Origin: a virus
Virus record (IMG/VR): IMGVR_UViG_3300031521_000001
Direction: 5' to 3' (one strand)
DNA: 64,000 nucleotides
Positions 17,689-24,946 of the stretch are shown here, one piece after another. How positions within the stretch are numbered: position 1 is the stretch's first letter; the number at the start of each line of letters is the position of its first letter. Under the pieces are notes generated by a model. That model saw only the letters and a program-made list of their open reading frames with translations, was not told the origin of the DNA and searched no databases. A program made the position numbers and the translations under genes.

Positions 17689-17692
17689 TTTG

Positions 17693-17765
17693 TGCTCCTG
17701 GTGAGAATCGAACTCACAACCTTTTCCTTAAGAGGGAATAGCTCAACCAATTAAGCTACAAGAGC
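17693..17765 (-). tRNA. tRNA-Lys(CTT)
   Basis: Cloverleaf; anticodon loop ct-CTT-aa; T-loop TTCGATT. Confidence 0.9.
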
Positions 17766-17875
17766 ATTTTTGATGTCAAAAAAGATTACAAAGGTTGTCA
17801 ACCTTTACTGAGGACTAATCAGCTACTATCGGAATCGAACCAAGGCTTCCAGCACTTCATAAATACTCTTTTTCT

Positions 17876-17952
17876 TGGGGTGAATAATCGGATTTGAACC
17901 GACCCTTAAAGAACCACAATCTATCGTGCTAACCACTAACACTACATCCACC
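17876..17952 (-). tRNA. tRNA-His(GTG)
   Basis: G-1:C73, loop tt-GTG-gt, encoded CCA. Confidence 0.9.
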
Positions 17953-17960
17953 ATTTATTT

Positions 17961-18049
17961 TGGGTGTCAGATGGGATTCGAACCCACATTAACTGTTAAG
18001 TATTCCTGATTCACAATCAGGGCGGCATCCCTTACCGACTACAAACACC
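17961..18049 (-). tRNA. tRNA-His(GTG) with long variable arm
   Basis: cctga-ttGTGaa-tcagg; 17-nt variable region; T-loop TTCGAAT. Confidence 0.8.
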
Positions 18050-18078
18050 ATATATAATATTCACATTCTGAATATTTG

Positions 18079-18169
18079 CGGAAAATGGGGGACTTGGACC
18101 CTCACACCGATTTAACTCGATGAACAGTTTAGCAAACTGCGCCAATACCAATTATGGACTTAATTTTCC
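18079..18169 (-). tRNA. tRNA-Ser(GCT)
   Basis: gcagt-ttGCTaa-actgt, long V-arm, G73. Confidence 0.85.
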
Positions 18170-18174
18170 TTATG

Positions 18175-18247
18175 TGGAGATTATTGGTTTTGATCCAATC
18201 TCTCATGCTCTTCAGGCATACGCTTTCACCAGATTAGCTTAATCTCC
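18175..18247 (-). tRNA. tRNA-Phe(GAA)
   Basis: tatgc-ctGAAga-gcatg; atypical T-loop ATCAAAA. Confidence 0.85.
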
Positions 18248-18261
18248 TTTTTAATAATTTG

Positions 18262-18349
18262 CGGTAAGTTGAGGACCCGACCCCCATCCGATTAAACGAA
18301 ACCTAGTTTTCAAGGCTAGTCGCCACTCCAATTGACTGCTTAACTTACC
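18262..18349 (-). tRNA. tRNA-Ser(TGA)
   Basis: ctagc-ctTGAaa-actag, long V-arm, G73. Confidence 0.8.
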
Positions 18350-18357
18350 ATTTTTTG

Positions 18358-18440
18358 CGGAAGAAGTAGGTCCCAACCCCAAGTCGTTTCCGACCGTACA
18401 GATTTCAAGTCTGTCTTGCTCTCTGAGCAATTCATCTTCC
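18358..18440 (-). tRNA. tRNA-Ser(TGA), 8/4 tRNA-Sec-like scaffold
   Basis: acaga-ctTGAaa-tctgt; 6-bp D-stem; 8-bp acceptor, 4-bp T-stem. Confidence 0.8.
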
Positions 18441-18481
18441 ATTATTTTAATTTTATATTCTACTATTAGAACATATTTTAG

Positions 18482-18563
18482 CACGCCATATTGGGATTCG
18501 AACCCATGAACCTTTCGGAATGATTTTGGAGATCATCTGCTTTGACCACTTGCTTAATGACGC
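18482..18563 (-). tRNA. tRNA-Trp(CCA) with extended variable arm
   Basis: atgat-ctCCAaa-atcat; V region tccgaaaggttc. Confidence 0.85.
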
Positions 18564-18574
18564 ATAACTATATT

Positions 18575-19414
18575 TTAATAATTTTTTTCATAAAAAATTC
18601 TCCACTTTTTAATAGAATTTCCACATACTCCATATTTTCTACCAGATCCTTCCAATCCTAATAACTCTATATCCATTTTTAATTGTTCATATGTAGGTCT
18701 TTCTACTGTTCTACTCTTGAATATATAATCTAGTTGTTTATCTGTCTTTTTATTTTTATATTTTTTATGTGTTTCTATATAATTATTATTTATTATATTA
18801 TTTTTAGTTATCATTCTTTTATTTCCAACACAATGAGTAGGTAATGTTGAATTACAATTAGGACAAACAATTCTCAAATTAAAAATTCTATTATCATTAT
18901 TTATACCATTGATATGATCCAATATCAATGACATATGCTCACCATTCCATTCTTCTCCTTGCCCACATTTTTCGCATAAACGTTCTTTTAATCCTTCTTT
19001 ATAAAGTCTTTCTTTTAATATTGTTGTATTATATGTTGAATTCTCAATTAATATTTTAGATAAATCAATTTTATTATGAATAACATCTATAATATTATTT
19101 TCAAAATGTTCTATACTAATATTATATTTTTTTATATATTTTTTTAATGTGTTGTAAGATGATCCCATATTTTTAATTCCTAATTTTTTAAGACATTCTA
19201 AATATGTTTTAGATTCAACTACAATTTTTTCTAAATTTTCTTTATGATATTTATCTTTAATATTATTATTTGCTAAAATATTTAATTTTTTCCTTCTTAA
19301 TTGGATTGATCTTTTTGTTCTATCTAATACTTTTAAACACTCATCTATACCATAAAGGGTATAATAATTAGTTAATAAATTATCTTCTTCCTTTGTCCAA
19401 TTTTTACTTTTCAT
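18575..19414 (-). CDS. HNH homing endonuclease
   Basis: CEKC, LDHINGINNDNR..NLRIVCPNCNS. Confidence 0.9.
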   Translation of the reverse strand: MKSKNWTKEEDNLLTNYYTLYGIDECLKVLDRTKRSIQLRRKKLNILANNNIKDKYHKENLEKIVVESKTYLECLKKLGIKNMGSSYNTLKKYIKKYNISIEHFENNIIDVIHNKIDLSKILIENSTYNTTILKERLYKEGLKERLCEKCGQGEEWNGEHMSLILDHINGINNDNRIFNLRIVCPNCNSTLPTHCVGNKRMITKNNIINNNYIETHKKYKNKKTDKQLDYIFKSRTVERPTYEQLKMDIELLGLEGSGRKYGVCGNSIKKWRIFYEKNY

Positions 19415-19483
19415 AATGTAGTCTTTTTTTGTAGTATATAAAAAAATACTATAGTCTCAAACTACATTAAAATACTATTTCAG

Positions 19484-19558
19484 TGAGTAAACGGTGAGTT
19501 CAACACCAGCCTTTGGTTTTTCAGACCAACGTACAATAAGCACCTATACGATTTACCC
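19484..19558 (-). tRNA. tRNA-Phe(GAA), second copy
   Basis: ttggt-ctGAAaa-accaa; acceptor gggtaaa/tttactc. Confidence 0.8.
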
Positions 19559-19566
19559 TTATACCA

Positions 19567-19878
19567 TTACTTGTTTTTTTCAAGTATTAATTTTTTTGCA
19601 TATTCTGAATCTAATTTATCAATCACTGAGAATGGTGAAACACCAATTCCTGTATAAGTAATATCATTAAATCCATTATCTTTTGTGATTAGACTTTCAT
19701 CTTCTGATATTGCACCTGAAAATTTGTCATATCCCTTTTTATGTTCTATATTTCCTGTACTTGGATTATATGAACCCCAATCTGCTGAACGTTTTGAACC
19801 AATTGGTTCCACATAATAACTTTTACCTGTTTTTAATGACTTAACAATGAATCTACCTGTTTCATCTCTTTGTGTCAT
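19567..19878 (-). CDS. Conserved hypothetical phage protein
   Basis: 103 aa, GRFIVKSLKTGKSYYVEPI. Confidence 0.6.
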   Translation of the reverse strand: MTQRDETGRFIVKSLKTGKSYYVEPIGSKRSADWGSYNPSTGNIEHKKGYDKFSGAISEDESLITKDNGFNDITYTGIGVSPFSVIDKLDSEYAKKLILEKNK

Positions 19879-20018
19879 AAACTTTCTGCCGAAATCTAAC
19901 TTTACCCCATGATTTTATATTTATTTTTTTATAATAGCTTCTCACTATTCAGATGAATAATTTTTATGTCCAGCCTAACTGAATAACTGTCATTCACTAT
20001 GACAAATATTTTATTTTT

Positions 20019-20999
20019 TTATTTAATCCATTTTTTAATAGAATTTCCAGTAACTCCATACTTTCTACCAACAGATTCTAAACTTGTTTCTTTTACCATC
20101 AAAATCAAATCATCTTTAGAAGGTCTTTCTAATACCTTTCTTTGTAATAAATGTGCACACTTTACACACCTAATAGAAGTTTTCCATATTTTTTCTCCAC
20201 AATTTATACAATAAGTATAGTTATCTTTATATTCTATTATTGGTTTATTATTAGATAAATTATTAATATATTCTAATAACCCAGTAATATATTTTTCTTT
20301 TTCTGTTCTTGTCATTTTTTGATAATCACTCCATTTTATTCTTATTATATCCCATCCATCAGATATCAAATATTTATTTTTTCTTATATCTGATTCTACT
20401 ATTTTTTTATCTAAGTAATGTTGATCTCCATCTATTTCAATTGCTATTTTTTTATTAGTTATAGAAAAATCTATATGATATAAACTTGATTGTACATATT
20501 TTTCATATTCAAATTTACCATTAAATATTTCATCAAAATATCTCTCAGGATAACTTGGACCTTTGCTATAATGATTTAACAAATAAGGAACTTTTTCTGG
20601 ATGTTCTTTTAAATATTTTGTTCTACTTATTGATATTTTCTTTTTTACTTCTTCACTATGGTATCTTTTTGTTTTTTTTCTTGATATTATAAATGATTCA
20701 CTTTTACTTCTAGTCTTAAATAAATTAGATTCAACAGCTTTATTTAATGTGGAATTATTTATATTAAATTTTTTAAGAACATCATCCCACATATTATTCA
20801 AATTATAATAATTTTGAACATCCACCCAATTAACATATTCAAATAATGTTTTTTTACATTTATTATCAGAATTAATAGTTCTAACTTTACCTCTTATTGA
20901 ATCTTTTGATATATTTAATAATTTAGATAATTCTTCATATGATTTATTCAAATTTTCACTTAATATTTTAATTTCATTTTCATCCCATTCTTTTTTCAT
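20019..20999 (-). CDS. DUF559/Vsr-like homing endonuclease
   Basis: YHIDF, IAIEIDGDQH, D..KNKYL..GWDIIRI. Confidence 0.85.
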   Translation of the reverse strand: MKKEWDENEIKILSENLNKSYEELSKLLNISKDSIRGKVRTINSDNKCKKTLFEYVNWVDVQNYYNLNNMWDDVLKKFNINNSTLNKAVESNLFKTRSKSESFIISRKKTKRYHSEEVKKKISISRTKYLKEHPEKVPYLLNHYSKGPSYPERYFDEIFNGKFEYEKYVQSSLYHIDFSITNKKIAIEIDGDQHYLDKKIVESDIRKNKYLISDGWDIIRIKWSDYQKMTRTEKEKYITGLLEYINNLSNNKPIIEYKDNYTYCINCGEKIWKTSIRCVKCAHLLQRKVLERPSKDDLILMVKETSLESVGRKYGVTGNSIKKWIK

Positions 21000-21076
21000 A
21001 TTATAATATTTTTAATGTATATATTAAATATAAAAAATAGCTTTAAACTTGATTAAAAAATAATGAGTTCATGTTG

Positions 21077-21158
21077 TGCTCCAACTGGGACTCGAACCCA
21101 GAATGACTTTCGTCCCCGCCTTAAAAGGGCGGTGCCTTACCAATTTTGCTATTGGAGC
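21077..21158 (-). tRNA. tRNA-Lys(TTT) with long variable arm
   Basis: ccgcc-ctTTTaa-ggcgg; V-arm gac-gaaa-gtc. Confidence 0.85.
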
Positions 21159-21170
21159 ATTTTTTAAAAC

Positions 21171-21204
21171 AAAAAAAATCCAAACTTTTTGAGTTTGGAT
21201 TTTT
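21171..21204 (-). terminator. Intrinsic terminator/attenuator immediately upstream of tRNA operon
   Basis: Minus strand AUCCAAACU-caaaa-AGUUUGGAU followed by U-tract. Confidence 0.85.
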
Positions 21205-21228
21205 ATATTTCTTTTACATTTATTAATG

Positions 21229-21336
21229 TTAACTTATATTTACAATAAGGCAAGAAGTATCTGTTCCAAACTCGGTTTTTCTAAACCAGAATTTAAAGGA
21301 TTTTGATGAACTACTATGTTTACTTATTGATCTCAT
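21229..21336 (-). CDS. Putative attenuator leader peptide MRSISKHSSSSKSFKFWFRKTEFGTDTSCLIVNIS
   Basis: 35 codons; codons 5-18 only S/K/H/F/W; contains GAGTTTGGA complementary to terminator 5' arm. Confidence 0.75.
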   Translation of the reverse strand: MRSISKHSSSSKSFKFWFRKTEFGTDTSCLIVNIS

Positions 21337-21504: not shown

Positions 21505-21975
21505 TTACTGATAATCTTCTGTTTGAATAATTCCAAACTTATGAAAATATCTTAATGGTCTCCATTTGTGGTTATTCACATAGAATCCCCATTTATGATA
21601 TGGTTTTGAACACAATAAAATTGTCCATGCACCTTCTTTTGGGATATCTAAGTAATGTCTTTGTTCTGCTTTCATAAAACGTGGTTTCCATGCTTTAGCT
21701 AAATACTTAACAGGATTTCCGTTTTCATCTGGTATTACATTAAAGTAATTACCTTTTATTATTATTGATATTAAATCACATGAATGATCATGGAAATAAC
21801 GTCTATCATCTGACCTAAGCCAATGATGCAATCTAAATGTATAACCGAAAATAATAAATGTCCATCTATATAAATATGGACATTCTTTTATTCCCATAGG
21901 TTCTTTAATCCTGATTTGAAGTTTATTTCCAAATGGAAAATCTTCATGATTTTTAAAGACTAACAATTTTCCCAT
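21505..21975 (-). CDS. Cupin-like phage protein
   Basis: LHHWLRSDDRRYFHDH...H...WGF. Confidence 0.65.
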   Translation of the reverse strand: MGKLLVFKNHEDFPFGNKLQIRIKEPMGIKECPYLYRWTFIIFGYTFRLHHWLRSDDRRYFHDHSCDLISIIIKGNYFNVIPDENGNPVKYLAKAWKPRFMKAEQRHYLDIPKEGAWTILLCSKPYHKWGFYVNNHKWRPLRYFHKFGIIQTEDYQ

Positions 21976-21991
21976 TTATTATAATTTGTTG

Positions 21992-22178
21992 TCAGTTGGG
22001 AAGGATTCGAACCCCCTATCTTTTGCCTGTTTTGATATTAACAATATTAATCTCTCATTTTCAGACATTCTCAACATTAGCTAATTGTATTGAATTTCTT
22101 ACTTCTTTAAAATTTTTTCTTATTAATACGATTAGCTATAGACTAATCCAACTGCTCTACCTATTGAGCTACCAACCG
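21992..22178 (-). ncRNA. tRNA-like RNA with ~115-nt insertion in place of anticodon arm
   Basis: Acceptor cggttgg/ccaactg+A, D-arm gctc/gagc, T-loop TTCGAAT; no normal anticodon hairpin. Confidence 0.7.
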
Positions 22179-22196: not shown

Positions 22197-22228
22197 TAAA
22201 ATTACAATAAAGTTTTCATTCGACCAAA
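22197..22228 (-). promoter_or_regulatory. Bacteroidota-type promoter (repeat of the 21439 element) upstream of tRNA-like RNA
   Basis: TTTG-N20-TAATTTTA; ~45 nt near-identical to 21445-21490. Confidence 0.6.
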
Positions 22229-22664: not shown

Positions 22665-22696
22665 CAAAAGTACAACTATTTTTTCAATCCACCAAA
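22665..22696 (-). promoter_or_regulatory. Bacteroidota-type promoter
   Basis: TTTG-N20-TACTTTTG. Confidence 0.7.
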
Positions 22697-24652: not shown

Positions 24653-24946
24653 TTAGAATTTTATTATTTCTTTAATTGCAACGCTATCAGATATACACAA
24701 ATTATTTAAATATTCCATTTCTATTAGTTTATCTGATACATCTTTATCTGATAAACCTTTCAATGTAAATTCACAATCTTTTCTGTCCAAATCCCTTTTA
24801 TGTGTATAAGGATTATATTGATATGTATCATATTTTATTATATAAACATCTTTTTTATACTCCAATTTTGACAAAGAATACACTAGAATTGATAGTATCA
24901 CTATAGCAAACACAAATCTAATTATTAATATTTTTATTATTTTCAT
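24653..24946 (-). CDS. Hypothetical membrane-anchored protein
   Basis: N-terminal hydrophobic helix. Confidence 0.55.
   Translation of the reverse strand: MKIIKILIIRFVFAIVILSILVYSLSKLEYKKDVYIIKYDTYQYNPYTHKRDLDRKDCEFTLKGLSDKDVSDKLIEMEYLNNLCISDSVAIKEIIKF

Follow-up and report, generated by a model that had tools for sequence, protein, structure and literature searches.

Phage genomes encode stable RNAs in or near their tRNA clusters, including RNA1 and RNA2 of phage T5 (NC_005859), annotated as "tRNA-like stable RNA with unknown functions", and RNAs C and D of phage T4 (NC_000866), to which the available text of PMC9697503 assigns no function. The RNA described here shares this setting and, like T5 RNA1, combines a D-arm and a T-arm with an enlarged middle; by eye, however, T5 RNA1 and RNA2 lack the U71-G72-A73 end and the Val, Phe, or Ile anticodon remnant of the present family, and no annotated cupin gene was found in the T5 and T4 stable-RNA stretches examined. 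Moreover, the tRNA genes of Lak megaphages carry "enigmatic introns", AT-rich inserts of 79-114 nt in the anticodon loop that belong to no Rfam family according to the available part of PMC6784885, and the insert analyzed here resembles them in its AT-richness and in its location in the anticodon loop of a megaphage gene. In the Lak examples given in that part of PMC6784885, the first pair is G1-C72, the 5' anticodon is intact, and taking out the insert, which lies near position 37/38, restores a normal tRNA, whereas in the present case removal restores no normal tRNA and the gene is linked to a cupin gene.

Two further systems would resemble the locus in what they do. Plant-virus TLS-Val elements such as that of TYMV are non-translating RNAs that keep A35-C36, are charged by ValRS, and in some cases tolerate large inserted stem-loops, which makes them a works-like analogue of the phage RNA, although they sit at the 3' ends of RNA genomes and have a pseudoknotted acceptor and 7-nt loops (PMC9976931, available text). 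The phage RNA, by comparison, comes from a free-standing gene, its loop is enlarged, and it has a partner enzyme. Staphylococcal non-proteinogenic tRNA-Gly has weakened EF-Tu contacts and supplies its amino acid to the non-ribosomal Fem transferases; it is of normal size, chromosomal, and paired with a GNAT-fold transferase, whereas the partner here is a cupin. The trait of such non-proteinogenic tRNAs, T-stem pairs that weaken EF-Tu binding, is present in the phage RNA according to an additive model. Lastly, the tmRNA-SmpB system, already reported from phages (PMC7162821, PMC4131195, in their available text), shares with this locus the tRNA-like ends around a longer region and the nearby smpB gene (see also the available part of PMC11915505), but the present RNA has no G3.U70, retains a D-stem, and shows neither a conserved tag nor co-occurrence with smpB.

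The window, a stretch of 64,000 nt from IMG/VR virus record IMGVR_UViG_3300031521_000001 with a GC content of 24%, belongs to a genome whose size is put near 700 kb by the completeness estimates of related contigs, and its closest cupin relatives are found in 640- and 676-kb phage records. Direct reading of the sequence and folding reveal a tRNA frame on the minus strand (22178-21992) with a 7-bp acceptor, a 4-bp D-stem, and a T-arm. The gene (21989-22178) extends for 187 nt to A73 (21992) and continues with CAA, CCA not being encoded. Specifically, the 5' strand of the acceptor (22172-22178) pairs with 21993-21999 through C1-G72, G2.U71, G3-C70, and the following pairs; the canonical D-arm with its 4-bp stem (RNA positions 8-26, 22153-22171) is recognized by cmscan and RNAalifold; and the T-arm (22000-22016; G49-C65, G50.U64, G51.U63) is predicted to bind EF-Tu weakly (+1.8 kcal/mol). 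Between positions 31 and 39 lies an insert of about 115-120 nt that includes hairpin A (GATTAG/CTAATC, 22130-22148), whose stem is kept while its loop differs in length among variants, and a 10-bp helix B (22120-22129 with 22035-22044, from RNAalifold) that closes a stretch (22035-22129) with an A-rich variable region inside. The first-pass annotation had proposed a tRNA-like RNA at 21992..22178 with C1-G72, A73, a D-arm, a T-arm, and these two helices, and all of these parts were recovered at the claimed places; it had also pointed to the D-stem and to the absence of G3-U70 as departures from true tmRNA, which holds.

In contrast, its view that the anticodon arm is replaced stands for the insert and probably not for the arm as a whole, since a weak anticodon stem and A35-C36 probably remain in the window. 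The 5' strand of this stem (22148-22152) forms three of five pairs with 22022-22026, in a register that is suggested by cmscan and by a 5-bp stem at the same place in the orthologous loci L111-L113, and positions 34-38 would then read A-A-C-A-G (22027-22031), with A35-C36 as valine-type anticodon bases. The same register and the orthologs would place the insert on the 5' side of the anticodon loop. The A35, C36, and A73 combination is found in the window only in this register, and a parser blind to AC picked a different one for the window and its two variants, so that the window is assigned to the family by the cmscan register and the L111-L113 orthologs. An alternative in which the 27-29 stem pairs with AAC, leaving a 12-nt variable loop, is equally well paired in the window and inconsistent among the three variants and the orthologs. 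An acceptor register with U1-A72, G3.U70, and C73 was likewise rejected, as it would require one more base and family members do not share the base that precedes C1.

The ARAGORN and Infernal searches that had been suggested as a check gave no call at default settings, the window RNA being missed by default ARAGORN and by Rfam at the gathering score, and only a sub-threshold match to the Rfam tRNA model (26.4 bits, E 0.005, cut-off 29). The fold of the whole RNA has z = -2.2, with 5 of 200 shuffles equally good. Upstream, a promoter-like site (TTTGGT ... TAATTTT, 22198-22228, minus strand, motif match) confirms the claimed promoter copy; this copy starts at 22228, sister copies lie at 22696 and 21470, and the same motif is found upstream in locus L003. 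The motif resembles the Bacteroidota-type promoter consensus, which would place the phage host in the Bacteroidota.

Exact-pattern scans detected two variants of the RNA, with 95% and 86% identity, in five IMG/VR contigs and one JGI contig, while five further places matching the 5' pattern proved to be ordinary tRNA-Lys genes. The acceptor, D-arm, and T-arm are identical in the three versions and the changes are confined to the insert; more distant orthologs show compensatory changes in the acceptor stem. The RNA is thus conserved, contrary to what a lack of conservation, named at the outset as grounds for rejecting it, would have implied. A blastn search against cultured phages returned 31 records, none with 80% coverage of the window RNA. 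The cupins of L111-L113 form a 100/98 clade with the window cupin, and their RNAs match the window RNA in length (186-188 nt) and have a 118-120-nt loop in which a short hairpin and a long helix, analogous to helix B, are followed by AC and a 5-bp anticodon stem. The claim for the window and L111-L113 is one of like architecture and not of covariation, because their helices are out of register in the alignment.

The conserved gene partner of the RNA, and its only constant neighbor, is a cupin gene, which the first-pass annotation missed in favor of smpB although it lies directly downstream. It encodes a cupin-fold protein of 156 aa (21505-21975, minus strand; PHROG 4786, E 1e-23), characterized by alignment, structure model, Foldseek, and linkage, and its reading frame starts 16 nt downstream of A73. 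The alignment of its relatives, of which 673 were found, has invariant H50, H62-D63-H64, and H107 together with many invariant Arg, Trp, and Tyr residues. The structure model (pLDDT 86.6) matches generic cupins in Foldseek at 11-19% identity with no substrate named, and a search of PDB sequences with the cupin profile gave no match. A cysteine dioxygenase label agrees with the cupin fold and its His metal ligands; there is no Pfam match (CDO_I has no hit), and the CDO rows of the Atlas reach only 0.78-0.82 with a TM of 0.57. A search for longer fused cupin forms gave one match in 3,361 candidates.

A script that took C1-G72 and A73 as search criteria located a tRNA-like RNA within 2.5 kb of the cupin in 49 of 66 distinct loci, upstream in 43 of them, the loci being mutually related and the counts therefore not independent events. 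Inspection of the 17 misses by eye added 11 loci with the RNA (one partial, one degenerate) and left 6 without, for a total of 60 of 66; one of the 49 matches, downstream in L164, looks spurious, and this locus has true candidates upstream. The partial match L179 is excluded from all counts. As a control, the script produced three spurious matches in 387,524 nt of tRNA-rich DNA and two antisense matches in 339,675 nt, and a parser free of any 1:72 filter returned the same RNA-cupin pattern. Because the RNA sometimes lies 3' of the cupin gene, it is a separate gene rather than a 5' leader. In four cultured phages, GD1, CcrColossus, Bajun, and RHph_Y1_11, the RNA is present without annotation. 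In four near-complete cupin genomes (G017, G018, G020, G022), a genome-wide search with a strict pattern detected no family RNA, and no T-arm motif is seen within 1.5 kb of five small-phage cupins (L180-L184, 27-35% identity).

In 11 of the 66 loci, the cupin gene is immediately preceded by a methyltransferase gene, mostly situated between RNA and cupin; the window lineage has no such gene near its cupin. Its product resembles N6-adenine enzymes (M.BseCI, E 6e-7; M.TaqI and M.BseCI folds). Among the best 80 loci of a search anchored on this methyltransferase, 6 have the cupin and all 6 also have a long tRNA-like RNA, adding 4 new loci (3 distinct), while the remaining 74 have neither cupin nor RNA. 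In Rhizobium phage RHph_Y1_11 (L105, 1746-1980), the annotated methyltransferase start and the tRNA-like RNA overlap, which makes it probable that the deposited record sets the start too far 5'. As for other neighbors, a Rid/YjgF-like gene, recognized by eye, lies directly upstream of the cupin gene in L150 and L178.

The family was characterized on 56 RNAs from 51 loci, selected for C1-G72 and A73 and parsed blind to the anticodon; the downstream rows of L163 and L164 were dropped beforehand (the L163 RNA later proved real), L141 stayed unparsed, and the parse did not locate L147, L151, L154, L157, and a second L164 RNA. A 5-bp anticodon stem is present in 46 of the 56, built from 47 different 5' strands and hence covarying. 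AC occupies positions 35-36 in 37 of the 56, against a background of 4.2%, whereas positions 33, 34, 37, and 38 vary and position 37 is often a pyrimidine. Of the tRNA-Pro identity set given in PMC9976931, C1-G72 and A73, which had been pointed out at first, are present, and the GG at 35-36 occurs in none of the 56. The anticodon loop ranges from 5 to 207 nt: among the 37 AC-type RNAs, one has a 7-nt loop and nine have both U33 and R37, and the insert-less members mostly have loops of 6, 8, or 9 nt. Inserts of unrelated sequence fall in the anticodon loop, the D-loop, or the variable loop. U71 is found in 40 of the 56 RNAs, and U71-G72 in none of 127 ordinary phage tRNAs. The CCA end is encoded by 18 of the 56 family genes.

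Two other anticodon types occur, GAA (Phe) in the alphaproteobacterial phages and L172, and GAU (Ile) in L168, L170, L171, and L204-L207, with the insert 3' of it; L206 and L207 have G1-C72 instead of C1-G72. In the cupin tree, which leaves out L167 and L184, a 57-row clade (99/99) is made up solely of AC and RNA-less rows, the GAA and GAU types fall outside it, as does GD1 (AC), and the RNA-less small-phage cupins form a separate clade. This agreement between anticodon class and cupin tree is compatible with co-evolution and does not prove it, because kinship alone can cluster labels. Rfam searches on nine member loci returned no family, the sole match being a generic tRNA on L168.

The T-stems also set the family apart. 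With an additive model whose base-pair energies derive from Table 2 of PMC3239215, in the available text of which some G50.U64 stems behave non-additively, the family has the same median EF-Tu score as the window, +1.8 kcal/mol (33 of 56 scorable, with 21 at 1.5 or above; the other 23 contain mismatches). Ordinary phage tRNAs have a median of 0.0 (116 of 127 scorable, 4 at 1.5 or above), and their Val, Ile, and Phe subset scores 0.2.

The reading favored here, at a little short of an even chance, is that the RNA may be a chargeable, non-decoding tRNA that serves the cupin. A charged carrier for non-ribosomal use would be the simplest account, because the identity bases are kept while loop size, U33, purine 37, and the EF-Tu contacts are lost. 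The RNA and the cupin gene would be transcribed jointly from the RNA's own promoter, the RNA ends would be processed as in a tRNA, and the RNA would be valylated by the host synthetase, since A35, C36, and A73 form the valine identity set read by ValRS (PMC9976931, available text), whereas RNAs of the outer clades would carry Phe or Ile. Beside a 120-nt insert, as in the window, ValRS may fail to read A35-C36. Exclusion of the RNA from the ribosome would follow from a loop length that hardly ever equals 7 nt, from the loss of U33 and purine 37, and from a T-stem poor for EF-Tu. The C1-G72/U71 end would mark it for its partner, given that host tRNA-Val, tRNA-Ile, and tRNA-Phe usually begin with G1-C72. 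The cupin would then receive the amino acid for a non-ribosomal reaction, in which this metal-binding protein, with an amino-methyltransferase as helper in some phages, would alter the aminoacyl group or the RNA itself. The inserts would be cargo that is tolerated at positions that the synthetase does not read. Against this reading stand the loci and near-complete cupin genomes in which no RNA was found, the weak anticodon stem of the window, the G1-C72 of L206 and L207, and the Lak C1 genome, where a long C1-G72 RNA occurs and a cupin match is lacking.

A broader proposal, to be held more tentatively still, is that this is a widespread phage module in which a ribosome-excluded tRNA of Val, Ile, or Phe type with the C1-G72/U71 mark might supply a cupin, in some cases accompanied by a methyltransferase, with an activated amino acid, which would amount to a new aminoacyl-tRNA-dependent chemistry and to the first partner enzyme for orphan tRNA-like phage RNAs. 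The module of non-decoding tRNA and cupin, with the methyltransferase optional, is apparently undescribed: no description of the pairing was found in the open-access literature, while subscription papers and bioRxiv supplements may bear on novelty; in the available text of the jumbo-phage review PMC7824862, cupins appear solely as members of sugar and metabolite clusters, and that of PMC11915505, PMC12619734, and PMC7373986 gives no account of such a module. One set of orphan phage tRNA-like RNAs thereby gains a conserved partner enzyme and sharp identity rules, and, owing to these and to the four cultured phages, including Caulobacter phage CcrColossus, its function is directly testable. The family also represents a natural tRNA scaffold that keeps the synthetase identity bases while its inserts reach up to 200 nt, and genes of this kind get missed or are miscalled as tRNA introns or tmRNA.

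Among the other explanations, an unlikely one that still carries some weight is that the RNA acts as a decoy or inhibitor, titrating ValRS or an anti-phage toxin that cleaves or modifies tRNA, with the cupin stabilizing, modifying, or presenting it. The identity elements and the EF-Tu-poor stem would suit a bait equally well, the RNA precedes a tRNA cluster that is probably controlled by an attenuator responding to tRNA depletion, and a phage tmRNA consisting of the TLD alone inhibits host tmRNA (PMC11915505, available text). A pure decoy would nonetheless need neither an enzyme with invariant metal ligands nor a methyltransferase, and a nuclease bait, as first suggested, should retain the tRNA-like 7-nt loop that the family has lost.

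It is rather improbable that the RNA is instead the substrate or scaffold of a methylate-then-oxidize RNA modification pathway, with aminoacylation incidental. The likeness of the methyltransferase to N6-adenine enzymes and the many invariant Arg, Trp, and Tyr residues of the cupin would be in keeping with such a pathway, but the methyltransferase accompanies so few of the cupins, the window's not among them, and bases 34, 37, and 38 vary freely; A73, the encoded CCA, and the EF-Tu-poor stem would also be left unexplained.

The intron-containing tRNA, one of the options first offered and taken here as a Val or Leu-UAG tRNA spliced by a novel protein route with the cupin as the nuclease, is improbable and is given slightly less credence than the modification pathway. 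In GD1 alone, excision would yield a perfect Val(GAC) loop, and RNA ligase and phosphatase genes lie upstream; a Leu-UAG product with a 4-bp stem is possible in all three close variants, and the Lak tRNA "introns" are similar in size (PMC6784885, Table S6, available part). Conversely, none of the 713 excisions per variant restores a 5-bp stem with U33 and R37, 10-15 per variant reaching 4 bp, and an intron would account neither for unrelated inserts at three loop sites, nor for insert-less loops that are mostly not 7 nt, nor for the frequent pyrimidine at position 37, nor for a T-stem that stays EF-Tu-poor even after splicing. No Rfam intron match indicating a group I core was found in the approximately 115-nt insert at E values up to 10.

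The option of a minimal tmRNA that works with the phage SmpB is very improbable. The smpB gene (PF01668, E 7e-52) does end at 24946, 2.8 kb upstream of the RNA on the same strand, as had been noted, and the open frame ..RKNFKEVRNSIQLANVENV* within the insert, also noted then, follows a U-A-A-U-C-G stretch that resembles a tmRNA resume context. However, the frames of the three 86-95% identical copies end in ..NVENV*, ..SDSI*, and ..SYYRK*, and because of these different ends the proposed tag is not a conserved one. Moreover, smpB occurs in 2 of 27 genomes chosen for the cupin family (1 of the 19 near-complete ones) and is absent from G012, G023, and G024, the closest relatives with an orthologous RNA; among 13 smpB loci the RNA is present only in near-identical phages, and L008-L010 have no such RNA between smpB and the tRNA cluster. 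Neither RF00023 nor ARAGORN called a tmRNA on the window RNA, a D-stem is present, and the 3:70 pair, G3-C70 in the window, is G-C in 33, A-U in 12, and G.U in 2 of the 56 family RNAs. Other smpB megaphages have a canonical tmRNA; 1 of the 10 smpB-related records and 2 of the 5 complete megaphages gave a match over the cut-off, and the nearest 97-kb record gave none. The smpB gene is not the partner of the RNA, which was misassigned to it by proximity. A tRNA pseudogene with a random insertion, to which the weak three-of-five anticodon stem of the window lineage could point, is equally improbable given arms identical in three variants with differing inserts, compensatory acceptor changes in orthologs, and family-wide linkage to the cupin that the favored carrier RNA would serve.

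Other unusual RNA genes were observed in the same material. In L134 (about 1985-2200), the 3' T-arm end of a family RNA is replaced by other sequence, unlike in its close relative L130. The genome of Lak C1 (L187, MK250029), which has no cupin match, contains a long tRNA-like gene with C1-G72, U71, and A73 near 536,550-536,785. Two tRNA-like genes look circularly permuted, with the 3' half before the 5' half: one in L086, about 270-390 nt upstream of the cupin gene, and one in L095 (near 1501, minus strand), with a C1-G72 acceptor much like that of the window, in a genome without cupin or smpB matches. Three G1-C72 tRNA-like genes of 98-124 nt with no normal anticodon arm lie near a phage smpB in L012 (6268-6989), and the 735-kb phage LR756501 (L057, 29384-29673) has a tRNA-Leu gene with an insert of about 200 nt that looks like a group I intron.

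Within the window, the tRNA cluster (17692-21158, minus strand) includes genes for Lys, Phe, Trp, His, and likely Ser, of which those for Lys, His, and Trp stand out by their long variable arms, and it is interrupted by HNH and restriction-like nuclease genes. A non-coding leader (19880-20010, minus strand), with no Rfam match at cut-off, precedes a 103-aa ORF (19567-19878), and its start is conserved in L003 and L005. Directly before the cluster, a segment at 21160-21336 (minus strand) has a short leader ORF with many codons for Ser, Lys, His, Phe, and Trp, the amino acids of the cluster, followed by a terminator hairpin, with a segment complementary to this hairpin inside the leader. The core peptide KHS..SFKFW is found again in L003, L005, L008, and L009 and in two copies in L010, the changes in the pairing segments matching each other, and this arrangement is likely a ribosome attenuator that switches on the phage tRNAs upon depletion of host tRNAs.
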